NCBI GenBank assembly: GCA_964574885.1
Contig: CAZNQT010000061.1
Span: 1 to 13,918 of the forward strand
DNA length: 13,918 nucleotides
Direction: 5' to 3'
From: an uncultured Pirellulales bacterium
GTDB lineage: Bacteria > Planctomycetota > Phycisphaerae > Sedimentisphaerales > SM23-30
The translations under genes and the position numbers were made by a program. Below are positions 1 to 13,305 of the stretch, piece after piece. Position 1 is the first letter of the stretch. The number at the start of each line of letters is the position of its first letter. The notes below the pieces were generated by a model. It did no database searches, was not told the DNA's origin, and worked only from the letters and a program-made list of their open reading frames with translations.

Positions 1-380
1 GTCACGTCGAATGGCGGGACTTTGATCCAACGGTGCTCGGCGGTAATTATCACGGTCATTATGGATATGGCCCGCAATGTACCGTTACACCGGTTGATCA
101 AGCCCGAAGTCACCCGATTCTTCGAGGCGTCAAACTGCCGTTTATCAGCATGGGCTCCTTATATAAAAACAATCCCTTAAAACCTTCTACTACCTGTCTG
201 CTCATGGGAAATATACCGGATAATAAGACCCCGGAACCGGTCGCCTGGACGAATACCTATAAAACCTCTCGCGTATTTTATACCTCGCTTGGATATCCGG
301 ACGACTTCAAAAATCCTGAATTCGTGCGCCTGCTCGCCAATGCCATCCACTGGGCCCTGGATATGCCCATTCCAAAATAA
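1..380 (+). CDS. ThuA-like (trehalose-utilization / class I glutamine-amidotransferase-like fold) protein, C-terminal part. The gene starts upstream of the window (frame 3 is open back to position 3).
   Basis: The frame is open from nt 3 with no in-frame stop before the ATG at 33, so the listed 115-aa ORF is the tail of a longer gene. The C-terminal motifs (...WTNTYKTSRVFYTSLGYPDDF...ANAIHWAL) match my recollection of the conserved ThuA-family C-terminus. ThuA partners with the Gfo/Idh/MocA enzyme ThuB in 3-ketotrehalose formation, which is coherent with the rest of the locus. Confidence 0.55.
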   Translation, partial: HVEWRDFDPTVLGGNYHGHYGYGPQCTVTPVDQARSHPILRGVKLPFISMGSLYKNNPLKPSTTCLLMGNIPDNKTPEPVAWTNTYKTSRVFYTSLGYPDDFKNPEFVRLLANAIHWALDMPIPK

Positions 381-729: not shown

Positions 730-766
730 GTTCAGTTATAATTGCCGAACTGGGTAAGGAGCAGGT

Positions 767-2587
767 ATGAGCGAGCAGAAATCTCCATCCACCGAGCAGC
801 AGGAATTAGCCCGTGGTTTACCGATGTTTTCCGCTTCGGATCCGGAGGCGCTGGCGGCAGAGAAAACCAGGCTCTCAGCCGTCCAAAATAAAGGCTTGCT
901 GACCCGCTGGAGAACCTATTTCTCCATGACCGGTCCCGGTTGGTTGCAGAGCGCCATGACGCTCGGCGCCGGCAGCGCGATGGCATCGTTGTTCTTGGGG
1001 GCGTATTATCAATATCGACTGTTGTGGATTCAGCCGCTGGCCATGGTTCTAGGTATCATTATGCTCTCGGCTATGTCGTATCAAACGCTCACCACCGGCG
1101 CCCGACCCTTTGATGCCATGCGAAAATTCATCCATCCCGCGATGGCCTGGGCCTGGGCCCTGGCGGCCTTGGCGGCGACTGTAATCTGGCATTTCCCGCA
1201 ATATGGTCTCGCCGCCGGCATGCTCGAAGACATGATCAAAGCGGCAACAAAATGGGAACCTACCGGTGCAAAACAAACCATTCTTTTATTGGCGATCGGC
1301 ATGGTGTTTCTGATCGTCTCCACCAAGATCACCTGGAACTACGAGGCGGGACATAAAGGTATCCGTATTTATGAAAAAGCCTTAAAGGGCATGGTCTGGA
1401 TGATCGTACTGGCGTTTGGCATCGTGGTGGTTTATACCACCGTACAGGGAAAGATTGCCTGGGGCCAGGTGTGCAAAGGATTTCTCCCCCTGCACATACC
1501 GACCGATTCGATGGGGATCAAAACGATCACCGGCGCCTTCAGTGCCGCGGTGGGAATCAATATGACGTTCTTATTTCCCTATACCCTGTTGGCGCGTGGG
1601 TGGAGTAAAGAGCATCGCGGGCTTTCCCGGTTTGATTTGATCTCCGGGATGCTGGTGCCGTACTGTCTGGCCACCTTGTTAATGGTAATTGCCACCGGAG
1701 GTACCATTTATCATACGCTGGAAAATCTGAACGTGAAAGATATTAAAGATCTTCCTGCTCTGGCGAAAAAGGTAACCGCCCAAGGCGCTCTAACGAATCC
1801 CGGTCCCAGCCGGCGACTCTGGCAGATGTTGGATCCAGACACGCAAACTCTCCTACAGGAAATCGCCCTGGCTAACGAAGCGACCGACGAACAAAAACAA
1901 GCGGTTTGTACGGCGCTGAATACCATCATCGCCAAACCGAATTTTTATACGGAAGAGGATTTCGCGAGCATCAAGGCAAAATTGCCCGTAAACACGAAAG
2001 ATATTCTTAAAAGAGATCAAAACCAATTGATCGACAAGGAAATTCGTTTACGAAATCGCCAAACTCTGGATACCGCCTTCCCGGAGAACATAAACGCATT
2101 ATCCTTACGAGTTTCCCCCACCAAGGCGGCCGGCATGTTTCAAGCGGTTGGTGTTACCCCATTTGTCTCCCGTTATATTTTCGGATTGGGCATACTGGGA
2201 ATTGTATTAAGCTCGATTACCCTGCAGATGTTGATGGCCGGTTTCGGCGCCTGCGAAATATTTAAATGGGAACCGGGCGGCAGAGCCTATAAGCTGGCCT
2301 GTCTGATCCCGGCGCCGGCCGTGCTGGGCGTAGTGCTCTGGAAGTATATGGGCACCTGGATTGCCATTCCGACTTCCGCGATCTGCGGCGTCATGCTGCC
2401 GATTGCCTATATCGGTTTTTTCCTGCTGAATAACAATAAAAAATATCTGGGCGACGCGACGCCGCGCGGCGGCAAAGCCGTATTCTGGAACCTCGGTATG
2501 GTAATTGCCATTGCAGCATCGATCGTCAGTGCCATTTATTTTCTGTATGCCGTATTTTATAAATGGTTGATACATCTATTCTCATAG
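767..2587 (+). CDS. Nramp/MntH-fold membrane transporter (606 aa) with substituted metal-binding residues and a ~140-aa hydrophilic insertion. Substrate unknown.
   Basis: RBS AAGGAG at 756-761. About 11 predicted TM segments. TM1 GPGWLQSAMTLGAGSAMASLFLGAYYQYRLLW aligns with the Nramp signature GPGFL..IAY.DPGN......AGA..GY.LLW, but DPGN is replaced by GAGS. In the TM6 region, AVGINMTFLFPYTLL aligns with A.IMPHN.YLHS, so Met becomes Asn and His becomes Thr. A long hydrophilic segment (aa ~325-465) lies between TM7 and TM8. Confidence 0.75.
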   Translation: MSEQKSPSTEQQELARGLPMFSASDPEALAAEKTRLSAVQNKGLLTRWRTYFSMTGPGWLQSAMTLGAGSAMASLFLGAYYQYRLLWIQPLAMVLGIIMLSAMSYQTLTTGARPFDAMRKFIHPAMAWAWALAALAATVIWHFPQYGLAAGMLEDMIKAATKWEPTGAKQTILLLAIGMVFLIVSTKITWNYEAGHKGIRIYEKALKGMVWMIVLAFGIVVVYTTVQGKIAWGQVCKGFLPLHIPTDSMGIKTITGAFSAAVGINMTFLFPYTLLARGWSKEHRGLSRFDLISGMLVPYCLATLLMVIATGGTIYHTLENLNVKDIKDLPALAKKVTAQGALTNPGPSRRLWQMLDPDTQTLLQEIALANEATDEQKQAVCTALNTIIAKPNFYTEEDFASIKAKLPVNTKDILKRDQNQLIDKEIRLRNRQTLDTAFPENINALSLRVSPTKAAGMFQAVGVTPFVSRYIFGLGILGIVLSSITLQMLMAGFGACEIFKWEPGGRAYKLACLIPAPAVLGVVLWKYMGTWIAIPTSAICGVMLPIAYIGFFLLNNNKKYLGDATPRGGKAVFWNLGMVIAIAASIVSAIYFLYAVFYKWLIHLFS

Positions 2588-2621: not shown

Positions 2622-3662
2622 ATGAAAGTATGGAATTTTGGCATCATGGGCGCGGGTCTGATCGCGGATTTTCACGCCCGCGCGATCGGTGATATCGAAA
2701 ACGCCCAACTCATCGGCTTTACCGATACGACCCCGGAAAAAGCCCGACAGTTGGCCGATAAGCATTCCTGCCGTGCGTTTGCGGATAATGAGGAATTATT
2801 GAATTGTCCGGATATTGATATTGTCACCATCGCCACTCCCAGCGGCGCCCACCTGGAACCCGCGGTAGCCGCCGCCCAGGCCGGCAAACACGTTATCTGC
2901 GAAAAACCGCTGGAAATCACGCTCGACCGCGTCGATGCCATGATCGCCGCCCACGAAAAAGCCGGTACCCTGCTCGGCGGCGTGTTCCAGAATCGATTCA
3001 ACGAAGCGATGATTCCCCTCCGCGAGGCGGTCCGGGCGCAGCGGTTCGGCAAAATTACCTTTGCCGGCGTCTATGTCCCCTGGTGGCGCGAGGAATCCTA
3101 TTACCAGAGCAGTTGGCACGGTGCCTGGAAACACGACGGCGGCGGCGCCTTAATGAATCAGTCGATCCACACGATTGACATGCTCTGCGATTTGATGCCG
3201 CCGGTCGAATCCGTCCAGGCCTACGCCGACCACCTCGCCCACGACATCGAAGCGGAAGATACCGCGGTCGCCGCCCTGCGGTTTACCAACGGCGCGCTCG
3301 GTTTGATTTACGGCACCACCGCCTCCTGGCCCGGCCAGTTCAAACGATTTGAAATCACCGGCGCCAAGGGCACCGTCGTGTATGTGGAAGACAGTTTAAC
3401 CGTCTGGCAGTTCGCCGAGGAAAAGCCGGAGGATGAAGAAATCCGCCAAAAATACGGCAGCATCCAAAACACCGGCGGCGGCGTAGCCGACCCCGCGGCA
3501 ATCTCCTATCAGGGCCACAGGAAAAATTTCCAGGCGTTTCTCAAAGCCCTCGAAACCGGAGGCGATTTCGAAATCTCCGGCGTCGAAGGCCGTAAGTCCA
3601 TCGAACTCATCCTCGCCATCTACCAATCCGCCAAAGAAAAGAAACTCATTCGTCTGACATAG
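2622..3662 (+). CDS. Gfo/Idh/MocA family NAD(P)-dependent oxidoreductase, cytoplasmic.
   Basis: N-terminal Rossmann motif GIMGAGLIADFHARAI and the family hallmark HVICEKPLEIT (the EKP motif). No signal peptide. It lies 34 nt after the Nramp-like gene, with GGGAGAG 6 nt before its ATG. Confidence 0.9.
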   Translation: MKVWNFGIMGAGLIADFHARAIGDIENAQLIGFTDTTPEKARQLADKHSCRAFADNEELLNCPDIDIVTIATPSGAHLEPAVAAAQAGKHVICEKPLEITLDRVDAMIAAHEKAGTLLGGVFQNRFNEAMIPLREAVRAQRFGKITFAGVYVPWWREESYYQSSWHGAWKHDGGGALMNQSIHTIDMLCDLMPPVESVQAYADHLAHDIEAEDTAVAALRFTNGALGLIYGTTASWPGQFKRFEITGAKGTVVYVEDSLTVWQFAEEKPEDEEIRQKYGSIQNTGGGVADPAAISYQGHRKNFQAFLKALETGGDFEISGVEGRKSIELILAIYQSAKEKKLIRLT

Positions 3663-3676
3663 GAAAAGAATATCTC

Positions 3677-5083
3677 ATGAAAATAGATATAACACCAGTA
3701 GCGGCTCAACTGTATTTTCTCCCCGTCCAAACCCGCGTGCCGCTCAAGTTCGGTCCGGAAACCCTGACCTCCGTCACCTGTGCGCGGGTCTGTTTGACCG
3801 TGCAGGATCGACCGGGTAAAACCGCCCAAGGCTGGGGCGAAACGCCCTTGAGCGTGCAGTGGGCCTGGCCCAGTTCGATCAGTCTGCAGGAGCGAACGGA
3901 CGCCATGCAGCAATTCTGTCAGTTCTTAACGGAGGTATGGGGACTTGTCGTGGACGACTGGGGGCATCCCCTGGAAATTGGGTATCAATTTCAGAGCGAT
4001 TTTTTAACCAGTACTTTAAAGAAATTTAATCTGGAGGAGCGCAAGGATCGAGAACCCCTGCCGCACCTAGCCGCTTTGATCTGCAACTCCGCTTTCGACA
4101 TTGCGCTGCACGATGCTTATGGAAGTCATTTGGAACAGGATGTTTATACTACCTACAACTCGAATTTCATGAACGCCGACTTGGAGAAATATCTAACTCC
4201 CGCGGAGGGAGCGAACATATCGTTCGCGGGTAAATATCCCGCCGATTTTATGATCTTCCCTCCGCCGCAGCAACTGTCCGCCTGGCACCTGGTCGGCGGG
4301 AAAGATCTATTAGAGGAATCCGAACTCACCGGCGATGAACCGGATGATGGCTATCCGGTCTTGTTGCCGGACTGGATCCGACGCGACGGCTTGACTTGTC
4401 TTAAAGTGAAGCTCCGCGGTAACGATGCCGAATGGGATTATGATCGCTTAGTCAAAGTCGGCGCCATCGCGCTGAAACATGACGTCCTCTGGCTCACCAG
4501 CGATTTCAACTGTACCGTCAGCGATCCCGCCTACGTAAACGAAATCCTCGACCGCCTGACGATAGAACACCCTCGGATCAGTCAGATGATCCTCTACGTC
4601 GAGCAGCCATTCCCCTACGACCTGGAGGCCAACCAGATCGACGTCCACAGCGTTTCGGCTCGCAAACCTCTGTTTATGGATGAAAGCGCCCACGACTGGA
4701 AATTTGTCAAGCTCGGTCGCACGCTGGGTTGGACCGGCGTCGCTTTGAAAACCTGTAAAACCCAGACCGGCGCCCTGTTGAGCCTCTGCTGGGCCAAGGC
4801 TCACGGTATGACGCTGATGGTACAGGACCTGACCAATCCCATGCTCGCTCAAATCCCCCACGTTCGCCTGGCCGCTCACGCCGGCACCATCATGGGTGTC
4901 GAAACCAACGCCATGCAGTTTTACCCCGCCGCCTCCGAACTCGAAGCGAAAATCCATCCCGGCATCTATCAACGCCGTAACGGCCGGGTGGACCTCTCCT
5001 CAGTCCACGGCCCCGGCTTCGGCTACCGCCTCGACGAAATCCGACGCGAATTACCCCCACCCGCCGCTTCCTGCTCCCGGTAA
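3677..5083 (+). CDS. Enolase-superfamily protein of the mandelate racemase / muconate-lactonizing-enzyme type (468 aa), candidate sugar-acid or sugar-lactone cycloisomerase or dehydratase.
   Basis: The KxK motif LKVKL is present. Candidate metal ligands are D in LTSDFNC, E in YVEQPF and D in FMDESAHD. A second-half Lys lies in ALKTCKTQTG. There is an N-terminal capping-domain-like region. The gene starts 14 nt after the Gfo gene, so it is in the same operon. Confidence 0.8.
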   Translation: MKIDITPVAAQLYFLPVQTRVPLKFGPETLTSVTCARVCLTVQDRPGKTAQGWGETPLSVQWAWPSSISLQERTDAMQQFCQFLTEVWGLVVDDWGHPLEIGYQFQSDFLTSTLKKFNLEERKDREPLPHLAALICNSAFDIALHDAYGSHLEQDVYTTYNSNFMNADLEKYLTPAEGANISFAGKYPADFMIFPPPQQLSAWHLVGGKDLLEESELTGDEPDDGYPVLLPDWIRRDGLTCLKVKLRGNDAEWDYDRLVKVGAIALKHDVLWLTSDFNCTVSDPAYVNEILDRLTIEHPRISQMILYVEQPFPYDLEANQIDVHSVSARKPLFMDESAHDWKFVKLGRTLGWTGVALKTCKTQTGALLSLCWAKAHGMTLMVQDLTNPMLAQIPHVRLAAHAGTIMGVETNAMQFYPAASELEAKIHPGIYQRRNGRVDLSSVHGPGFGYRLDEIRRELPPPAASCSR

Positions 5084-5126: not shown

Positions 5127-6497
5127 TCATTTGTATTTACGGAGAAAATATCGATATTGATGGTAAGACAGGCCCACGTCGCGGGCGGCCTGGGCCTGGT
5201 TGCCGGCAGCCTGCTCCAGCGCTTCCGTGATGAGGTGTTTTTTAAAGGCTTCCACCTTTTCGTTAAAGGTATTGCCTCTTATGGCAGTGGACGTTTCCGG
5301 TAAAAAGCCCAAATCCTCCGGAGTAATTTCATTGGTGGTATCGCGATAGGCGGCACGCTCGATAATATTTTTCAGTTCGCGGACATTGCCGGGAAAATCA
5401 TACTTTTCCAGGACGTCCAAAGCGGTTTTACTGAGCCGTTTGCCGCCGAGGGAAGGAATTTCCTGCATAAATTGAGATAGAAAGTGTCGCGCCAATAGGG
5501 GGATGTCTCCTTCTCTCCGGCGTAGTGGCGGCACCGAGATGATCTCAAAACTGAGGCGATCATAGAGGTCGCGTAGGAATTTGCCTTCCTCCATCTTCTT
5601 TTTCAGATCGACATTAGTGGCGGCGATGATACGCGTATTGACCTGAATCTCCATTGATCCCCCTACCCGGGTAAAGGTGCCGTATTCCACCACGCGGAGA
5701 ATCTTTTGTTGGAACGGAAGCGACATATTGCCAATTTCATCCAGAAACAGTGTGCCGCCGCTGGCCAACTCAAATTTGCCGTGCACCTGGTGATCGGCGC
5801 CGGTAAAAGCGCCTTTTTCGTGGCCAAACAACTCTGCTTCCAGCAAGGAATCCGGAAAGGCCGAACAATTGACCACCACCATGGGCCGACCGCTGTCACC
5901 GGCGGCAGTATGGATCGCCCGCGCCACCAACTCTTTCCCCGTTCCGCGCTCACCGAGAATCAACACTGGACGTGGGATGGTCGAGACGCGTTCGATCTGT
6001 TCGAGAACTTTTCTGATCTGAGGTGAGTCTCCGCCGATCCGGAACCGCTGCCGGGCCGTTTCCTGGAGCAGCATATTTTGCTCCCGAAGGATTCGGTTGC
6101 GATGGATTAGATTCAGATGGGGGCGGAATTTATTCAAAAAGGTGGTAACGCGATCGCCCAGTTTACCGGTCCGAACAAGAAAATCGTTGGCGCCGGCTTG
6201 AATGGCCTGGGAGACAATTTCCACATCTCCTCGCTCGGCCACGATCACAATCGGCAGGTCCGGAAATTCCCGACGAATCATCGGCAATAATTCAATGCCG
6301 CTCGACTGCCCATCGCCGATTTCATAATCCATAATCAGCAGATCCCCCGTCAATCCGCTGCGCAATTTCTCCAACAGACGCTGAGCGGAAAACACTCTCT
6401 CAATTTGACAGTCATTCTTGGATGCCTGCGTGAACGCTTCGATGAGAGTATCGAGCCGATTTTCAGGCGTATCAAGAAAGATAAATTTTCTATTCAT
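5127..6497 (-). CDS. Sigma-54-dependent transcriptional activator (NtrC-family response regulator: receiver, AAA+ sigma-54 interaction and Fis-type HTH domains).
   Basis: The receiver domain carries a phospho-acceptor-like Asp (LLIMDYEIGD). Walker A is GERGTGKE. The GAFTGA motif (EKGAFTGA) defines sigma-54 contact. Walker B is LFLDEIG. The C-terminal HTH is AARDVGLSYHQYRYFLRKY. The track ORF begins at a TTG (6521). The ATG at 6497 (MNRKFIF...) is the more likely start. Confidence 0.9.
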   Translation of the reverse strand: MNRKFIFLDTPENRLDTLIEAFTQASKNDCQIERVFSAQRLLEKLRSGLTGDLLIMDYEIGDGQSSGIELLPMIRREFPDLPIVIVAERGDVEIVSQAIQAGANDFLVRTGKLGDRVTTFLNKFRPHLNLIHRNRILREQNMLLQETARQRFRIGGDSPQIRKVLEQIERVSTIPRPVLILGERGTGKELVARAIHTAAGDSGRPMVVVNCSAFPDSLLEAELFGHEKGAFTGADHQVHGKFELASGGTLFLDEIGNMSLPFQQKILRVVEYGTFTRVGGSMEIQVNTRIIAATNVDLKKKMEEGKFLRDLYDRLSFEIISVPPLRRREGDIPLLARHFLSQFMQEIPSLGGKRLSKTALDVLEKYDFPGNVRELKNIIERAAYRDTTNEITPEDLGFLPETSTAIRGNTFNEKVEAFKKHLITEALEQAAGNQAQAARDVGLSYHQYRYFLRKYK

Positions 6498-6652
6498 AAT
6501 GCATACGATCCAGAAATACAACTGTGCTAGAAATCCAATATCAATTCAACCTATCAGATCAGTACACCGCGGTCAAGGATTTATGATACTTTTCACTACA
6601 TATATAGTAAAAACTCCCATGTATTTCCGCTATAATCCAAGGTACATATTTT

Positions 6653-6694: not shown

Positions 6695-6710
6695 TGGCAT
6701 GATAATTGCG
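6695..6710 (+). promoter_or_regulatory. Sigma-54 (RpoN) -24/-12 promoter driving the SPFH operon.
   Basis: TGGCATGataaTTGCg matches TGGCACG-N4-TTGCA. The GG at 6696-6697 and GC at 6708-6709 have the canonical 11-nt register. It is oriented toward the SPFH gene (ATG 6781, RBS AAAGGAG 6768-6774) and sits beside a divergently encoded sigma-54 EBP. Confidence 0.6.
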
Positions 6711-6780: not shown

Positions 6781-7809
6781 ATGAAAAAGTTATCCATTCT
6801 TTTATTCAGTCTAGTAGCCCTGGGACTGATCGGCAGTGGATGCAAACCGTATAAAGGGGAAAAATTTGAAGAAGTTCAGAATCACGAAACGGCGTTTGTC
6901 ATACCGTATGAAGGCGATCTGGCCAAACAAGAGAAATTGAAATCTCTGGACGCCCTGGAATCCTATCAGGTAGCGATTAAACGAATCGATATTCCCCGAC
7001 GCTGGAAGAAAACCGGTCGTTTGTGGTGGGCTGGGGAGTGGATCGACGTCGTCAAGGTGATCAAGGTGGATCGCTCGCCCGTGACTCGGGAGTGGACCGC
7101 CAGCCGGGATACCGGTACCAGCGTTCGCAACGAAGGGATCTGGATCGAAAGTGAAGACAGCGTTTCCTTTAGTACGGGATTTACCTGTACGGCGTTCATT
7201 AAGGAGGAAGACGCCGCCCGGTTTTTATATCACTATCCCAACGGCCAACTCGCCGTCATCATGGATAACCAAGTCCGCGCTGAAATTCAATCCAAGGCAG
7301 CGGAAATCGCCGCCCTGTACAAAATGGATGAATTGCGGGCGAAAAAAGCGGAAATCATCCAGGGAGTACGCGAACATGTAATTCCATTCTTTAATCAGAC
7401 AGGCATCACGATTACTACCATCGGTATGTTTGGCGGTTATACGTATGAAAATCTGGAGATCCAAAAAGCGATCGACAACACCTTTGTGGCCCAGCAGGAA
7501 AAAGTAATTGCGGCGGCAATGTATGAGGCGCAGGAAGACAAGAATCGCCGCATTGAAAAGGAAGCTGAAGCTCAAAAAACCGCTTCGGTCATTAAAGCCA
7601 ATGGTGAAGCTGAAGCAATTACCATTGTTGCCCGGGCCGCCGAAAACGCTCAAAAGAGTCCGGCCTTTCTGCAACTGCGTAAGTTGGAAGTGGAATCTCT
7701 GCGTATCGAAAAATGGGATGGCCGATATCCCAGTCATTACTGGAACACCGCGAATACCGACGGCCTGGGAATTATCGTCAACACACCGAACCTAACGGAG
7801 AGTGAATAA
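6781..7809 (+). CDS. SPFH/Band-7 (stomatin/prohibitin/flotillin/HflKC-like) domain lipoprotein.
   Basis: Signal peptide with lipobox MKKLSILLFSLVALGLIGSG|C. The SPFH core is followed by a coiled-coil region rich in E, A, Q and K (EAQEDKNRRIEKEAEAQKTASVIKANGEAEAITIVARAAENAQ) that is typical of the family. Confidence 0.8.
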   Translation: MKKLSILLFSLVALGLIGSGCKPYKGEKFEEVQNHETAFVIPYEGDLAKQEKLKSLDALESYQVAIKRIDIPRRWKKTGRLWWAGEWIDVVKVIKVDRSPVTREWTASRDTGTSVRNEGIWIESEDSVSFSTGFTCTAFIKEEDAARFLYHYPNGQLAVIMDNQVRAEIQSKAAEIAALYKMDELRAKKAEIIQGVREHVIPFFNQTGITITTIGMFGGYTYENLEIQKAIDNTFVAQQEKVIAAAMYEAQEDKNRRIEKEAEAQKTASVIKANGEAEAITIVARAAENAQKSPAFLQLRKLEVESLRIEKWDGRYPSHYWNTANTDGLGIIVNTPNLTESE

Positions 7810-8081
7810 TGAAAGCGAAGATTATTAATATGGTATGGTTACTGATCGTGTTATTTGCTTTGAATTTCATATTGCATCAGTGGGCCATACCTCACAACAC
7901 GACGGATCTGGCACTGCAGCAAATGAACGAAGATGGTTCGCGGGAACAGCTACGGGCCTGGGAGGAACTTTCCAACTGGATTACCCTGGGGTTATCGATA
8001 GCGGGATTGGCGGGGATGTTACTCATTTGGTTTAAACCCGACGCCCGGCCCTCGCCATCGGGAACAGGCTTTAGGGCTTAA
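7809..8081 (+). CDS. Small (90 aa) two-TM membrane protein translationally coupled to the SPFH gene, possibly a minimal NfeD-like partner.
   Basis: The start overlaps the SPFH stop (TAATG at 7807-7811). It has two hydrophobic helices (VWLLIVLFALNFIL and ITLGLSIAGLAGMLLIWF) flanking a ~35-aa polar loop. SPFH genes are commonly paired with small membrane partners. Confidence 0.55.
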   Translation: MKAKIINMVWLLIVLFALNFILHQWAIPHNTTDLALQQMNEDGSREQLRAWEELSNWITLGLSIAGLAGMLLIWFKPDARPSPSGTGFRA

Positions 8082-9457
8082 AGCGACCAGGGAGTTCGCA
8101 TGGGTGTGCCGAGCATACGGTTTGCCTGCTCATCGCCGATACACTGTTCCTTCTCAGCGTCCCAATGCAGTTTCCGCTGCAACTTCATGGCGATGTTGCC
8201 CAGGTGACAGACGCTCGTCGAGCGATGTCCCACTTCGATCGGCGTAATCGGTTCGTTCCCGTTCTTGATGCAATCCAGGAAATTGCGGTGATGGTCGGTA
8301 CTCTTGTAGAGGTGGATTTCACTGGGCCCGATCACGGAATCTCGTAATGATTCCGGATAGGTCTTGCAGGTTCGCCAATTCGCCTCGATCCAGCCCTCCG
8401 TCCCTTCGAACCGATGCGTGGTACTCTCCGAGCTGGTCTGGCAAATCACATCGACGCCGTTGGCGTACCCCAATCGAAAATGAACGTACGTTGCCGTCGA
8501 AAACAATCCGTCTTTGGGGAATACTCCTCCGAGATCTTCCACTACCACTGGGCCGGTTCGGTCGGTCCCCATCGCCCACTGTACGATATCGAGTACGTGC
8601 ACTCCCAGGTTGGTCGTCTGTCCGCCGCAGTGATCCCAGACGAACCGAAACGTATAATGCGTACGGTCCCGATGATAGGGCGCCCAGGGCGCCGGCCCCA
8701 GCCACATCTCGTAATCCAGCGTCTTCGGGATCGGCTGACTTTCCCAGGCGCTCGCCGCCGAGGTACGATTGTTCGGACCCACCCAGCACAGTACGCGCTG
8801 GAGTGTACCAATCCGACCGTTCCGGATCAGTTCGCAGACGTGACGGAGATGCTGATTCGCCGAACGATGATGCGTTCCGGTCTGAAACACTACACTGTGC
8901 CGTTGGACCGCCTCCGCCATGGCCCGACCTTCCGCGATGGTCAGACTCAATGGTTTTTCCCCGTAAATATGCTTACCCGCTTTCGCCGCCTGGATCGCCA
9001 GAATCGCATGCCAGTGATCCGGCGTGGCGATCATCACCGCATCGATATCCCCCCGCGACAGCAAGTCCCGAAAATCCCCGTACCCGTCGCAACCTTTGAA
9101 AGTCCCCTTACTGCGCTCGTCGGCGTAATGTTTATTCACCCGTTCCTGTGCCGGTTCGCGTCCCAGGTACCCCCCTTTGTTATACCAGTGATTGTAAATG
9201 TTTGTACCCTGTTCCGGATCGCAGACCGCTACCATTTGCACATCTTTATTGGCCAGGAAGCTCATCATATTATTCGTGCCCATGCCGCCCAAACCAATGC
9301 AGCCCATCACGATCCGATTACTGGGCGCGTTCGCGCCGAATACCGAGGAGGGCACTACATACGGCGCCGCCATTACCGATGCCGCCACCGCGCTCGAACG
9401 CTTTATGAATTCCCGCCTACTTAATTTATTCTTCTGATTGGGGAAAGGCTCGGACAT
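8078..9457 (-). CDS. Tat-exported Gfo/Idh/MocA family oxidoreductase, a periplasmic glycoside-3-dehydrogenase-like enzyme.
   Basis: Twin-arginine signal SRREFIKRSSAVAASVMAAP. The dinucleotide-binding motif is MGCIGLGGMG. The hallmark is HIYGEKPLSLT. The preferred start is the ATG at 9457, where RBS AGGAGAGG is ~9 nt upstream. The track start at 9484 is a GTG abutting that RBS. Confidence 0.9.
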   Translation of the reverse strand: MSEPFPNQKNKLSRREFIKRSSAVAASVMAAPYVVPSSVFGANAPSNRIVMGCIGLGGMGTNNMMSFLANKDVQMVAVCDPEQGTNIYNHWYNKGGYLGREPAQERVNKHYADERSKGTFKGCDGYGDFRDLLSRGDIDAVMIATPDHWHAILAIQAAKAGKHIYGEKPLSLTIAEGRAMAEAVQRHSVVFQTGTHHRSANQHLRHVCELIRNGRIGTLQRVLCWVGPNNRTSAASAWESQPIPKTLDYEMWLGPAPWAPYHRDRTHYTFRFVWDHCGGQTTNLGVHVLDIVQWAMGTDRTGPVVVEDLGGVFPKDGLFSTATYVHFRLGYANGVDVICQTSSESTTHRFEGTEGWIEANWRTCKTYPESLRDSVIGPSEIHLYKSTDHHRNFLDCIKNGNEPITPIEVGHRSTSVCHLGNIAMKLQRKLHWDAEKEQCIGDEQANRMLGTPMRTPWSL

Positions 9458-9483
9458 TATCATTCCTCTCCTGAACGATATCA

Positions 9484-9545
9484 CCCCTGCGCAGGCAGGG
9501 GTCCAGGAACATCTTTATCGACTGGATTCCCGCCTGCGCGGGAAT
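9484..9545. repeat. Two tandem GC-rich hairpins between the DUF1080 gene stop and the Tat-Gfo gene start. They look like a terminator or a recurrent palindromic motif.
   Basis: Hairpin 1 is cccctgc-gcag-gcagggg (9484-9501). Hairpin 2 is attcccgc-ctgc-gcgggaat (9526-9545). Both share the core CCTGCGC(A)GG. The spurious translation of this region reads PAQAGVQ...LDSRLRGND. Confidence 0.45.
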
Positions 9546-9572: not shown

Positions 9573-10895
9573 TTATTTATCTTTCTTCACAATCGGAATC
9601 AATACGATATTACGGAATTCCATTGGGGACCCTTCCGCCTGCAGGCAGATCTTGCCGGGCGTCTCCCAGCATTCCGTCGCCGTATTTTGCAGCAAGCCGT
9701 TGACGTAGAGTTCCAGGTTACTTTTGTCCAAATTTATTTCATACTCGTTCCATTGACCGATTGGCTTTTCGTTGGATTTATGCATTTTCCCCGTATGGCG
9801 CCCGTTAGTCCGTGAGGGGTCCACCTTCATGGGGAATTTATCGATATTCCAGATATCGCCCATGGCATCGGATTGCCCCTGGGCTTCGATGGATCGAGGC
9901 CACACCTTGTCCGGGCCAACCATTCGCAGTAGTACGCCCCCATTGCCCTTGCTGATATGCCGCAACTGCATCCGCAGTACGTAATTCGTATAATCTTTGG
10001 TTGTACGGATATACCCGGTAGGTCTGCCTTTATCGACTAAAATGCCGTCTTTCACGAACCAGGCGGCGTCCTCATTTTCACTGGAAAAGGTCCAGCCGTC
10101 GAGATTCTCGCCGTTGAACAGCCGGACGGCTTTGCCGAAATGATCCGGTAACTGTTTAATCCGAATGTCCTTGAAATCTACGATCATCGGCGAGCCTGCG
10201 TGTATCTGCAGCGCCAGTACGCCTTCCAGCAGCGCCCCCTTGCGATCGTTCTTATCTTTGGGATCAACCACCCGGTCATTATCAATTAATTCCATGGTCT
10301 CATAGCCGTTGAGATATTGAATCAGATGATTCCCCCGTGCGACGATCTTATATTCATTCCAGTCTTTCAGTTTATAATAGCCGGCTTTTTTCAGGGCTTC
10401 TACGTCCGAAACTTTACCGACGACGTTCTTGTTGCCTTTTTTATCGATTTCCATGATATCGCCGACGTTGACCAGCCAGCCTCGACCACTTTCATGATAT
10501 AAAAATCCCACCTTGCCCGGTGTATCTTCCACTTCCGCCTGGTAGCCGTTAATGCGCCATTTCTCATGTTCTTTACTGCGGTACTGGATGCCTGAGTTGC
10601 CGTTTTGAATCCGGAATTTAATTTTGAGAATGAAATTCTTGAGCCGCCCGCCCCGCCAGACGCAAAAGGTATTTCCCCGCGCCGGATTTTCCGGCGTCGT
10701 CTGACCTCGAATCGCGCCATCGACGACCTTCCACAACCGCGGATCGCCGTCCCAGCCGGTCAGATCCTTGCCGTTGAAGATCCGGGTAAAGCCCGGCTCC
10801 AGTTTTTCCTCCGCTGCCTGACTCCGGCCGTTCGTGATGCCAATGACCATCCCCATCGCTAACAGCAAACCGATTTGATTCCATTTCCCATGCAT
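9573..10895 (-). CDS. Secreted protein with two tandem DUF1080 / 3-keto-disaccharide hydrolase (PF06439-like) domains.
   Basis: Signal peptide MHGKWNQIGLLLAMGMVIGITNGRSQA. Two repeats each open with the family motif (FNGKDLTGWDGD...W.V.DG and FNGENLDGWTF...WFVKDG) and close with ..Q.HaGSPM.F..I.I. or LQAEGSPMEFRNIVLI. A strong RBS GGAGGTG lies 4 nt before the ATG. Confidence 0.85.
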   Translation of the reverse strand: MHGKWNQIGLLLAMGMVIGITNGRSQAAEEKLEPGFTRIFNGKDLTGWDGDPRLWKVVDGAIRGQTTPENPARGNTFCVWRGGRLKNFILKIKFRIQNGNSGIQYRSKEHEKWRINGYQAEVEDTPGKVGFLYHESGRGWLVNVGDIMEIDKKGNKNVVGKVSDVEALKKAGYYKLKDWNEYKIVARGNHLIQYLNGYETMELIDNDRVVDPKDKNDRKGALLEGVLALQIHAGSPMIVDFKDIRIKQLPDHFGKAVRLFNGENLDGWTFSSENEDAAWFVKDGILVDKGRPTGYIRTTKDYTNYVLRMQLRHISKGNGGVLLRMVGPDKVWPRSIEAQGQSDAMGDIWNIDKFPMKVDPSRTNGRHTGKMHKSNEKPIGQWNEYEINLDKSNLELYVNGLLQNTATECWETPGKICLQAEGSPMEFRNIVLIPIVKKDK

Positions 10896-11345: not shown

Positions 11346-12722
11346 ATGATGGAAATTAAAAACGATCTTACGCCGGCGGACCTGCTGCCGAAAATCGAAC
11401 GTATGTGGGACTTATCCGGCAGAAAAATCAAGTCGATCGAAAGCGTCTGGAAACCTGCCGATGGTTCGCCCGTGTTTACCATCCAGGGCAAATACACCGC
11501 CCAGGGCTGGACCGAGTGGACCCAGGGATTTCAATTTGGTTCTGCCATCCTGCAGTTCGACGCCACGGACGACGAGGACTTCCTGCAAATCGGTCGCGAT
11601 AAAACCTTCCAGGTCATGGCCCCCCATATCACCCACATGGGCGTACACGATCATGGTTTTAACAACGTCAGTACCTATGGCAATCTGCGCCGCTTGATGA
11701 ACGAGGCCCGCATCGAAGAAAATCAGCGGGAGCGGGATTTTTATGAACTCGCTCTCAAATGCAGCGGCGCCGTCCAGGCCCGACGCTGGACGAAGACCAA
11801 GGACGGCGGCGGATTCATCTATTCCTTCAACGGACCGCATTCCCTTTTCTGCGACACGATACGTTCCCTGCGGGCGTTGGCGGTTTCCTATATGTTGGGA
11901 CACGTGCTGATGGAAGAAATGGATAAACCGGTCTCGCTGCTGGATCGACTTTTCCAGCACGCCCGCTCCACGGCTAAATATTCCGTCTATTACGGCGAAG
12001 GCCGCGATAGCTACGACGTCTGGGGCCGTGTCGCTCATGAAAGCGTCTTCAACGTTAACGACGGCAACTACCGCTGCCCGAATTCGCAGCAGGGATTTTC
12101 GCCCTTTACCACCTGGACGCGCGGCTTGGCCTGGATCATGGCCGGATACCCCGCGCAACTGGAGTTCCTCGCTACGCTGAAAGACAGAGAGATCGAACCG
12201 TTCGGCAGACGTACCGAGATGGAAGACATCATGCTCAAAGCCGCCCAGGCCGCTTGCGATTTCTACATCGAAAACACCACGCCCGAAGGCATCCCCTATT
12301 GGGACGCCGGCGCCCCCAACCTCTACAAACTGGGAGATTATCTGAACGCCAAAGCTGATCCCTACAACGAACATGAACCGGTGGATGCTTCCGCGGCGGC
12401 GATCGGCGCCCAGGGATTGGTTCGTTTGGGATGCTACCTCGAAAATAAAGGCGACGCCGAAGACGCTAAACGCTATTTCCAGGCCGGATTAACCGTGCTC
12501 GACACCCTCCTGGACGAACCCTACCTCAGCACCGACGAGAATCATCAGGGCCTGCTGCTGCATTCCGTATATCATCGGCCTAATGGCTGGGATTACATCC
12601 CGGAAGGAAGAAAAATCCCCTGCGGCGAATCCAGCATGTGGGGCGACTACCACTTTCGCGAACTCACCCTCTACGTCCGGCGCCTGGCTAACAATATGCC
12701 CTACTATACCTTCTTCGGTTAA
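11346..12722 (+). CDS. (alpha/alpha)6-barrel protein resembling GH88/GH105 unsaturated glycuronyl / rhamnogalacturonyl hydrolases. The family assignment is tentative.
   Basis: A 458-aa cytoplasmic protein. The C-terminal motif SMWGDYHFRELTLYV resembles the conserved WGDY(Y/F)F.EAL element near the C-terminus of GH88/GH105 enzymes, as I recall it. The acidic, Trp-rich composition is typical of sugar-binding alpha-barrels. RBS GAGGA lies ~8 nt upstream of the ATG. Confidence 0.5.
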   Translation: MMEIKNDLTPADLLPKIERMWDLSGRKIKSIESVWKPADGSPVFTIQGKYTAQGWTEWTQGFQFGSAILQFDATDDEDFLQIGRDKTFQVMAPHITHMGVHDHGFNNVSTYGNLRRLMNEARIEENQRERDFYELALKCSGAVQARRWTKTKDGGGFIYSFNGPHSLFCDTIRSLRALAVSYMLGHVLMEEMDKPVSLLDRLFQHARSTAKYSVYYGEGRDSYDVWGRVAHESVFNVNDGNYRCPNSQQGFSPFTTWTRGLAWIMAGYPAQLEFLATLKDREIEPFGRRTEMEDIMLKAAQAACDFYIENTTPEGIPYWDAGAPNLYKLGDYLNAKADPYNEHEPVDASAAAIGAQGLVRLGCYLENKGDAEDAKRYFQAGLTVLDTLLDEPYLSTDENHQGLLLHSVYHRPNGWDYIPEGRKIPCGESSMWGDYHFRELTLYVRRLANNMPYYTFFG

Positions 12723-12806: not shown

Positions 12807-12858
12807 AACGAATTGTTTTATACGCCATTCAATATGGAAATTTTCAGGAGTGATCATT

Positions 12859-13305
12859 GTGAATATCATCGATATCAGGAATATCGAAGGTCGCACCTAT
12901 CCGGCCCGTCGGCGCACCCGACCGCTCGTCGGTCCGGGATTGTCGATCGATACGGACAAGTTCAGTCTTGGCTACGTCGAACTGGAGCCAAACGGCGGTC
13001 AGGTCCCCTGGCACAATCAGGATCAGGTGGAAATCTATCTTCTCCTCGAAGGAACCTGCGAAATGTGCCTGGGCGCAGAAAAGCAAACTATGACCGCAGG
13101 CCAAATCATCGAAATTCCCTCCGGCGTATTCCATCAGATTACCAATATCGGCGACACTCCTGCCCGGATGATATACTGCTATTCCCCCGGCGGCGACGTC
13201 GCCCACTGGCGCCAGGAACTCACCGGCGCCCTGCCCAAGGCCGGTGACGACGCGCCTCCTTTACCTGACGGAGCTCATCCCCAATGCACGGATAAACCTG
13301 AGTAA
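12859..13305 (+). CDS. Cupin-domain (RmlC-like beta-barrel) protein.
   Basis: Cupin motifs: G(X)5HXH-like region ...PNGGQVPWHNQDQVEIYLLLEG and second motif G..IEIPSGVFHQITNIG. The ORF-track start at 12850 is a GTG overlapping the RBS CAGGAG. The GTG at 12859 with 8-nt spacing is preferred. The stop overlaps the RBS of the next gene. Confidence 0.7.
   Translation: MNIIDIRNIEGRTYPARRRTRPLVGPGLSIDTDKFSLGYVELEPNGGQVPWHNQDQVEIYLLLEGTCEMCLGAEKQTMTAGQIIEIPSGVFHQITNIGDTPARMIYCYSPGGDVAHWRQELTGALPKAGDDAPPLPDGAHPQCTDKPE

Follow-up and report, generated by a model that had tools for sequence, protein, structure and literature searches.

A stretch of 13,918 nucleotides (nt) from an uncultured Pirellulales bacterium (contig CAZNQT010000061.1 of assembly GCA_964574885.1), called the window below, carries at positions 767 to 2587 a gene for a membrane protein of 606 amino acids (aa). 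The protein is a true but very distant homologue of the Nramp-fold metal transporters, in which the aspartate and asparagine metal ligands of the first transmembrane helix (TM1) are lost. A non-metal role of this carrier is strongly supported, and the import of a sugar-derived substrate is moderately supported. With modest confidence, the protein is read as a secondary importer of a carbohydrate-derived solute, which keeps the Nramp/LeuT architecture and does not transport manganese or iron. The features of the gene and its protein are listed here. Alignment A1 holds close relatives and alignment A3 holds 66 diverse family members.

767 to 2587, plus strand: transporter gene, an open reading frame (ORF) read from the first start to the stop; 606-aa membrane protein with 11 transmembrane (TM) helices and the Nramp fold (LeuT fold).
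756 to 761, plus strand: Shine-Dalgarno-like AAGGAG, from sequence reading, with the ATG 5 nt downstream; kept in the related loci L001 and L005.
800 to 907, plus strand: conserved N-terminal cytoplasmic segment, residues ~12-47, RGLPMF.AS.PEAL..EK..L, from the conservation in alignment A1.
929 to 976, plus strand: TM1 signature T55-G-P-G-W-L-Q-S-A-M-T-L-G67-A68-G69-S70, in one register in all alignments and kept to ~30% identity.
1544 to 1585, plus strand: TM6 break region A260-A-V-G263-I-N265-M266-T-F-L-F-P-Y272-T, from the secondary structure (DSSP) of the predicted model and from conservation; helix break predicted at G263.
1709 to 2107, plus strand: insert of ~133 aa, residues ~315-447, in the extracytoplasmic TM7-TM8 loop; all-helical and lineage-specific.

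The homology to Nramp was verified at the sequence, profile and structure levels. The Pfam Nramp family PF01566, with a gathering score of 29.8 bits, matched two stretches of the protein at 60.8 bits; the best stretch covers residues 78-334, and PF01566 is carried by all listed homologues. The scores lay below the curated NCBIfam cut-offs, with 28.9 against 272.5 bits for TIGR01197, 28.2 against 430 bits for NF001923 (MntH), and 26.7 against 50 bits for NF037982 (Nramp_1). When a family profile of 64 diverse relatives was compared by hhalign with nine canonical MntH proteins, the alignment covered TM1 to TM11 with a probability of 98.5-99.6% and an expectation value (E) of 1.7e-15. The AlphaFold2 model of the protein, built on 36 relatives, has a mean predicted local distance difference test (pLDDT) of 86.7 and a predicted template modelling score (pTM) of 0.87; its N-terminal segment forms short helices before TM1 (residues 10-13, 19-22 and 26-39). 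In a Foldseek search of the PDB, ranks 1 to 25 were all of the Nramp type (Nramp, NRMT, NRAT and a deposited YcsG model), with E down to 4.7e-10, and NKCC1 and other LeuT-fold carriers ranked below them. The TM-score normalised to DraNramp was 0.74-0.81, at an identity of 10-16% in the structural alignment. The Pfam, hhalign and AlphaFold2/Foldseek results together indicate that the homology is real and very distant. An earlier reading of the DNA letters without database searches (the sequence-only reading) had recognised an Nramp-fold protein, and the profile search and the predicted fold agree with it.

The TM1 metal site was examined next to this framework. L66-G67-A68-G69-S70 lies on the Nramp (I/M/L)-D-P-G-N in an identical register in every alignment made, which places G67, A68, G69 and S70 at the Asp-Pro-Gly-Asn positions; the DPGN motif that marks SLC11/Nramp/MntH transporters in the strict sense was not found. 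Residues 48-81 contain no Asp, Glu or Asn at all, and the position of the Nramp Asp is Gly in all 66 diverse members of alignment A3. The replacement of Asp by Gly and of Asn by Ser, as the sequence-only reading had stated it, is thus confirmed for TM1, and the register behind the loss of both ligands is robust.

The TM6 site is less sharply placed. No Met-Pro-His motif was found in residues 248-276. One hhalign run put F270-P271-Y272 on the Met-Pro-His triad; the better-supported run, with a broader profile, put G263-I264-N265 there, with M266-T267 as an insertion. TM6-TM7 was left unaligned by the HMMER profile searches, and a single-sequence hhalign run was too weak to fix the register. F268 to T273 fall on N-L-Y-L-H-S both in the broader-profile alignment and in the register of the sequence-only reading, and the model breaks TM6 at G263; the triad is therefore placed within G-I-N-M-T. 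This unwound segment (G263-T267) is two residues longer than its Nramp counterpart. Possible mappings put the Met at G263, I264 or N265 and the His at N265, M266 or T267, and no register was found that retains Met and His together. The absence of the triad stands as originally described; the claim that TM6 aligns convincingly does not, given the unaligned HMMER region and the two differing hhalign registers, and the substitution of Met by Asn and of His by Thr, with N-M-T on the triad, is only one of several possible registers. N265 is invariant in A1 and nearly invariant in A3.

The protein can be assigned by its motifs to a coherent, deep and uncharacterised clade of PF01566. In a protein search, 2585 relatives reached E<=1e-3, and the closest, at L001, is 86% identical; the close relatives of the query had E from 0 to 1e-184. 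The family profile was also searched against 1.84 billion representative sequences, where only 978 clusters, formed at 50% identity, lay within E<=1e-3 and 242 within E<=1e-30. From this small number, the canonical Nramps would lie largely beyond the reach of this profile. Similarly, its matches to solved structures were weak, with E of 4e-8 for EleNRMT, 3e-7 for NRAMP1, 4e-5 for NRAT and 8e-4 for BfraNramp. Relatives were found in the genomes of at least 567 species, mainly in Planctomycetota (Sedimentisphaerales, Pirellulales and the cultured Kolteria novifilia) and Bacteroidota (Alistipes, Bacteroides, Muribaculaceae and Parabacteroides acidifaciens), with further relatives in Verrucomicrobiota, Omnitrophota and Acidobacteriota. 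The clade signature is GPGWLQSA.TLG.G[ST] followed by GINMTF, and the query has both motifs. The motifs kept down to ~30% identity are GPG[WY][LM]QSA.TLG.G[ST] in TM1, W.xPQ[YF] in TM3, YE..[LI]K in TM5, A[AT]VGINM[TVL]FL.PY in TM6, and a Ser/Thr-rich TM8. In a search for literature linking Nramp with Gfo/Idh/MocA, ApbE or SusD operons, no paper describing this clade was found.

Carrier paralogues occur together in some loci. Two tandem copies of 593 and 605 aa lie at 6174-9818 of L002, and in L023, L025 and L027 a short and a long copy flank two Gfo/Idh/MocA genes. Such pairs may represent two specificities or a hetero-oligomer.

The carrier gene in the window is followed closely by two enzyme genes, as the sequence-only reading had described.

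2622 to 3662, plus strand: Gfo/Idh/MocA oxidoreductase of 346 aa by Pfam; no signal peptide, the N-terminus starting at the Rossmann motif.
3677 to 5083, plus strand: divergent enolase-superfamily protein of 468 aa; Pfam MR_MLE_C, 41.7 bits.

The gap between the carrier and the Gfo/Idh/MocA gene is 34 nt, and that between the Gfo/Idh/MocA gene and the enolase-superfamily gene is 14 nt. The gene order is conserved in L001, and the window and this closest relative are the only loci in which the enolase-superfamily partner was found. The closest solved relatives of the Gfo/Idh/MocA protein are PDB entries 3q2k (E 3.9e-55) and 3q2i (E 1.2e-50); their database labels read only "oxidoreductase" and "dehydrogenase", and we take both to be WlbA-type sugar 3-dehydrogenases. 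The enolase-superfamily protein had no PDB match by sequence, and its NCBIfam matches, to MenC and N-acetyl-D-Glu racemase, were weak.

The neighbourhood was then compared over the family, with ORFs called in 84 loci, clustered, and the clusters named by Pfam. Among the 110 immediate neighbours found in 72 loci, 25 were Gfo/Idh/MocA proteins, 9 were xylose-isomerase-like TIM barrels and 5 were GNAT acetyltransferases. Gfo/Idh/MocA is the commonest immediate neighbour throughout the family and across phyla, and the association with Gfo/Idh/MocA and TIM-barrel genes occurs in both crown clades of a rough neighbour-joining tree without support values. DUF6807, SDR, ThuA and PQQ-type proteins also recur, and no metal-related family was present among the 25 most frequent neighbour families. 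The adjacent Gfo/Idh/MocA proteins are of three kinds: a type of 345-352 aa that lacks a signal peptide, to which the protein of the window belongs; a type of 393-396 aa in Bacteroidota that also lacks one; and a type of 449-494 aa with a twin-arginine translocation (TAT) signal. The Bacteroidota loci have the order SusC, SusD, in brackets a 3-keto-disaccharide-hydrolase-like gene, Gfo/Idh/MocA, carrier and TIM barrel, and the genes are separated by anything from a few to a few tens of bases. The enzymes on either side of the carrier there lack signal peptides. The carrier is the sole inner-membrane transporter recognised in these SusC/SusD operons, and one of the loci has a LacI-family regulator. 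No recognised glycoside hydrolase was found in the stretch examined of the gut Bacteroidota polysaccharide-utilisation loci. The sugar-type substrate proposed by the sequence-only reading is thus favoured by the Gfo/Idh/MocA neighbours, which extend across the family and its phyla; the enolase-superfamily partner, shared only with L001, is not general to the family.

The topology of the carrier was derived from its sequence and its relatives. Short predicted cytoplasmic loops hold 14 Lys/Arg residues against 4 in the short extracytoplasmic loops. ApbE is an enzyme working in the periplasm, and in some relatives an ApbE domain follows TM11. Given the Lys/Arg bias, the 11 TM helices and this position of ApbE, the N-terminus is placed inside and the TM7-TM8 loop outside, as the sequence-only reading had expected. 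The hydrophilic insert lies between TM7 (helix 281-313) and TM8 (helix 465-498). Its position was called correctly in that reading, and its extent is refined from ~140 aa (nt ~1720-2160) to ~133 aa (nt 1709-2107). It is predicted by AlphaFold2 to be helical, with pLDDT above 90, and no structural relative was detected for this helical domain. By length, the relatives form two groups, one of ~476 aa, to which most of them by far belong, and one of ~600 aa, and the block of residues ~315-447 makes up the difference. Family members have between 13 and 231 aa in the TM7-TM8 loop and between 18 and 140 aa in the TM5-TM6 loop, and the insert is not homologous to the inserts of other clades (hhalign probability 1%). 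Absent from most family members, it is specific to its lineage and decorates a hot spot of insertion, and it is not a defining module; a substrate-binding or gating function, as once suggested for it, is unsupported. Unrelated inserts were also seen in extracytoplasmic loops of other clade members. The 653-aa P0129 has a 168-aa insert in loop 7-8 with a weak DUF7507 match, the 611-aa P0122 has one of 140 aa in loop 5-6, and loop 7-8 of the 722-aa P0132 holds 231 aa of repetitive helical sequence.

A mechanism can be proposed on this basis. The carrier would cross the membrane with 11 TM helices, starting in the cytoplasm and ending outside. Gly and Ser stand at the TM1 ligand positions of Asp and Asn, and the longer G-I-N-M-T replaces the Met-Pro-His of TM6. 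Conserved polar residues without charge would line the central pocket, namely Q61, S62 and S70 of TM1, H142, Q145 and Y146 of TM3, N265 of TM6, and S482 and T485 of TM8. A rocking-bundle mechanism of alternating access, with H+ or Na+ as the driving ion, would bring in a small polar solute derived from carbohydrate, for example a sugar, a sugar acid, a polyol or a keto-sugar. In the cytoplasm, the product of the co-transcribed Gfo/Idh/MocA gene would then oxidise the imported substrate, and the enolase-superfamily enzyme would process it; in the relatives, the xylose-isomerase-like TIM-barrel enzyme would take this second role. The helical TM7-TM8 insert would be an accessory, lineage-specific part outside the core of the mechanism. 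Enzymes of the enolase superfamily act by removing a proton adjacent to a carboxylate, and a sugar acid may therefore be the substrate of the operon in the window. The fold and family placement, the lost TM1 ligands, the site of the insert and the neighbourhood association are observed here; that the protein transports at all, in which direction, with which coupling ion, through which pocket residues and for which class of substrate is inferred.

Several observations weigh against the import of a carbohydrate-derived solute. Gene neighbourhood is the sole source from which a function is suggested for the clade, and Gfo/Idh/MocA genes are very abundant in Planctomycetota, which raises the background, though not to 23% of the immediate neighbours. 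Many of the adjacent Gfo/Idh/MocA proteins carry TAT signals and hence are periplasmic; at such loci, the carrier would take up a product or might otherwise serve the periplasmic enzyme. The putative pocket lining was read from the sequence and the usual LeuT-fold layout. The enolase-superfamily partner implies a carboxylate, yet no conserved Arg or Lys was seen among the putative pocket residues. M266, beside the TM6 break, is kept in at least 90% of A3. Lastly, some members are fused to ApbE, which a simple sugar importer does not explain.

The ApbE fusions are found in early-branching clusters. P0135, P0153, P0175 and P0206 have a C-terminal ApbE domain (flavin adenine dinucleotide (FAD):protein flavin mononucleotide transferase, E 1e-63 to 1e-81), and P0273 is likewise listed among the fused members; the fusion loci are L094-L099. 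The domain is placed after TM11, on the predicted periplasmic side, and the fusions lie on several independent long contigs. A TAT-signal Gfo/Idh/MocA gene immediately follows the fusion in L097 and in L098/L099, and two other fusions have housekeeping-type gene surroundings. Flavinylation was also considered as a general feature of the Gfo/Idh/MocA neighbours and was dropped, the sole loose motif match (EVAQGAT, in the Gfo/Idh/MocA protein of L097) lying beside an ApbE fusion. The fusions tie the family to periplasmic redox chemistry and keep alive an explanation by cofactor supply.

This cofactor explanation, in which the carrier exports FAD or another flavin, or serves periplasmic ApbE and TAT-exported Gfo/Idh/MocA enzymes, is quite unlikely. 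It draws on the ApbE domain after TM11 in early-branching members from independent contigs, on the two fusions directly followed by TAT-signal Gfo/Idh/MocA genes, on the core motifs of TM1, TM3, TM6 and TM8 that fused members have in common with the query, and on the TAT-signal Gfo/Idh/MocA proteins beside many unfused members. However, the Gfo/Idh/MocA proteins of the window and of Bacteroidota are without a signal peptide and look cytoplasmic, an ApbE gene lies nearby in only one of the 84 fetched loci, and a search for motifs of the flavinylation type in the Gfo/Idh/MocA proteins beside unfused members found none. A fusion can also join two steps of a pathway without FAD being transported by the carrier, and FAD greatly exceeds the usual LeuT-fold substrates in size. 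A broader form is considered very unlikely. In it, the whole clade would be a previously unrecognised class of Nramp-fold carriers that act at the inner membrane as obligate partners of Gfo/Idh/MocA enzymes, and the ApbE-fused early members followed by TAT-exported Gfo/Idh/MocA enzymes would reveal an ancestral role in moving a redox cofactor such as FAD, or a redox-linked solute, across the membrane for periplasmic sugar oxidation; if it were true, it would supply a route by which flavin reaches periplasmic ApbE. Import of a small polar organic solute other than a carbohydrate, such as an amino-acid derivative, a lactam or an N-acyl compound, would parallel YcsG/PxpT and is rated as unlikely. 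An organic solute has already been linked to an Asp-less branch of PF01566 (PMC13274462), and L093, a locus of that kind, adjoins a hydantoinase/oxoprolinase gene; the weak MenC and N-acetyl-D-Glu racemase matches of the enolase-superfamily neighbour and the recurrent GNAT acetyltransferases point the same way. Against these stand the dominant, phylum-spanning partners, Gfo/Idh/MocA and the xylose-isomerase-like TIM barrels, and the SusC/SusD, ThuA and 3-keto-disaccharide-hydrolase genes, all of which point to carbohydrates. In addition, at 40.8 bits against L093, the family stands at least as far from the orphan/PxpT type as from other Nramps, and its motifs differ.

A cation transporter with a re-formed site, made for example from S70, N265, M266 and backbone carbonyls, would fit the passed PF01566 threshold, the source names "divalent metal cation transporter" and "Mn2+/Fe2+ NRAMP family transporter", the strong conservation of N265 and M266, and the fact that the best profile match among solved structures is the Mg2+ transporter EleNRMT. 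It is nevertheless highly improbable: the essential Asp is Gly family-wide and TM1 has no acidic residue, no conserved acid was seen in the aligned TM3 segment, where Nramps have their proton-pathway acids, every curated Nramp/MntH cut-off lies far above the scores, the 25 commonest neighbour families include none related to metals, and no M-box or other riboswitch was found upstream. More remote still is a protein that does not transport, acting as a membrane sensor (transceptor) or as a docking partner for periplasmic oxidoreductases through its extracytoplasmic loops. Loops 5-6 and 7-8 are indeed hot spots for unrelated inserts (13-231 aa), and the ApbE fusions and the tight pairing of many members with TAT-exported Gfo/Idh/MocA proteins would suit such a role; but the strongest conservation is in the intramembrane core of TM1, TM3, TM6 and TM8, the LeuT-fold substrate site, the commonest form is short and insert-less, and no signalling domain is attached. 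Import of a carbohydrate-derived solute is the reading retained.

The remaining features of the window were also searched. A carbohydrate-oxidation island, which likewise suggests carbohydrate use, was identified by Pfam and NCBIfam, together with other elements.

8078 to 9484, minus strand: TAT-signal Gfo/Idh/MocA protein, which resembles glycoside 3-dehydrogenases.
9573 to 10895, minus strand: double 3-keto-disaccharide-hydrolase.
33 to 380, plus strand: C-terminal fragment of a ThuA protein.
11346 to 12722, plus strand: weak GH88-like protein.
12850 to 13305, plus strand: cupin.
553 to 741, no strand assigned: nested palindromic element from a repeat search, in the 5' leader or promoter region of the carrier gene; 37-nt arms 553-589 and 705-741 enclose hairpins 591-631 and 662-705.
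5127 to 6521, minus strand: PspF-like sigma-54 activator with a receiver domain, divergent to the SPFH gene.
6695 to 6709: sigma-54-type -24/-12 match TGGCATGATAATTGC with 1 mismatch, upstream of the SPFH/Band-7 gene at 6781 to 7809, plus strand.

The element at 553-741, just upstream of the ribosome-binding site, has an RNA fold z-score of -11.6. It had no Rfam match, and neither L001, the locus of the 86%-identical homologue, nor L005 has such an element upstream of its carrier. A conserved riboswitch or leader RNA was therefore rejected, and the element is probably an inserted palindromic repeat resembling a miniature inverted-repeat transposable element (MITE) or a repetitive extragenic palindromic (REP) sequence, outside the conserved system. 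No Rfam match, and no M-box, was found upstream of the carrier or elsewhere in the window, and the promoter and terminator scans gave nothing above chance. Sigma-54 control of the carrier operon was likewise dropped, as no -24/-12 match lies upstream of 767. The sole good match of this type precedes the SPFH gene, and the PspF-like activator therefore probably controls that gene and not the carrier operon. In the related loci L001 (5445-7811) and L005 (907-3303), a GH129-like protein with a carbohydrate-binding module lies directly upstream of the carrier, and the intergenic region at ~7830-7900 of L001 contains a short tandem repeat that is GGTGCCAGATCGTAAGTC-like.

Databases call many members of this clade manganese/iron or "divalent metal cation" transporters. 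This name is almost certainly wrong, which bears on how the metabolism of Planctomycetota, Bacteroidota and related phyla is reconstructed. If carbohydrate-derived solutes are imported, the Nramp scaffold would serve as a nutrient carrier like other LeuT-fold families, and the missing inner-membrane importer would be supplied for the widespread oxidative clusters of Gfo/Idh/MocA and TIM-barrel enzymes, including those in the polysaccharide-utilisation loci of gut Bacteroidota. The family would then offer a natural experiment in the conversion of a metal site to an organic-solute site.

The carrier was compared with the known relatives of Nramp. The SLC11/Nramp/MntH proteins (DraNramp, E. coli MntH, ScaDMT and human DMT1) have PF01566 and the 11-TM LeuT-type fold in common with the query and are its best structural matches. 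The TM1/TM2 framework GPG...GA..Y.LLW is similar, and the TM7 Asp is present, D290 of the query corresponding to D238 of the E. coli protein. In contrast, the query has GAGS in place of DPGN, no MPH and no conserved TM3 acid that could be seen, and it sits among genes for sugar oxidation, not for metal homeostasis.

NRMT (Mg2+) and the plant NRAT (Al3+) are likewise divergent PF01566 members with altered binding sites, and both carry metal cations. The TM1 Pro is replaced by Ala in NRMT as in the query (D-A-G-G and G-A-G-S). However, when 'GNDAGG' of EleNRMT is aligned to 'TLGAGS' of the query and 'LDPSNLE' of NRAT (8ont) to 'LGAGSAM', the Asp is retained in both NRMT and NRAT and is missing in the query. 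NrmT genes have been found to follow M-box riboswitches, and many of them have a link to MgtE-like fragments (PMC4072509), whereas the query has neither an Rfam match in the window nor an MgtE-like neighbour.

Asp-less relatives form a further group. PF01566 has been divided into Slc11, NRMT and an "orphan outgroup" without the Asp, Asn, Ala, Met, His set (PMC9606685, PMC10606218), in which TM1 has GPGT and TM6 has V..Y (PMC10606218). The utilisation of 5-oxoproline genetically requires the Nramp-family proteins YcsG and PxpT (PMC13274462). L093, at 186-1394 of the Halocatena marina plasmid NZ_CP109980.1, is annotated as "Nramp family divalent metal transporter" and is Asp-less, with GPGT in TM1 and G-T-T-V-V-G-Y in TM6; by this motif and its hydantoinase/oxoprolinase neighbour, it appears to match the orphan outgroup and to be of the YcsG/PxpT type. 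The family profile matched L093 only weakly, and the deposited YcsG model (9a52) was not found by sequence search. The orphan outgroup and YcsG/PxpT resemble the query clade as Asp-less, repurposed Nramp scaffolds, with YcsG/PxpT linked to an organic, non-metal substrate. The motifs differ, GPGT and G-T-T-V-V-G-Y in L093 against TLG.G[ST] and G-I-N-M-T-F in the query clade, and so do the partners: hydantoinase/oxoprolinase or pxpABC for YcsG/PxpT, and Gfo/Idh/MocA and TIM barrels for the query clade, with no pxp or hydantoinase genes among the neighbours of the query or of the surveyed family loci. The sequence-only reading had placed the protein a further step from metal transport than known divergences such as NRMT and NRAT. 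This is true relative to NRMT and NRAT, which keep the Asp, but the Asp-less orphan outgroup and YcsG/PxpT precede it. Since such Asp-less relatives were already known, the clade is not a new category; relative to them, it appears to be new in its motifs and its partners.

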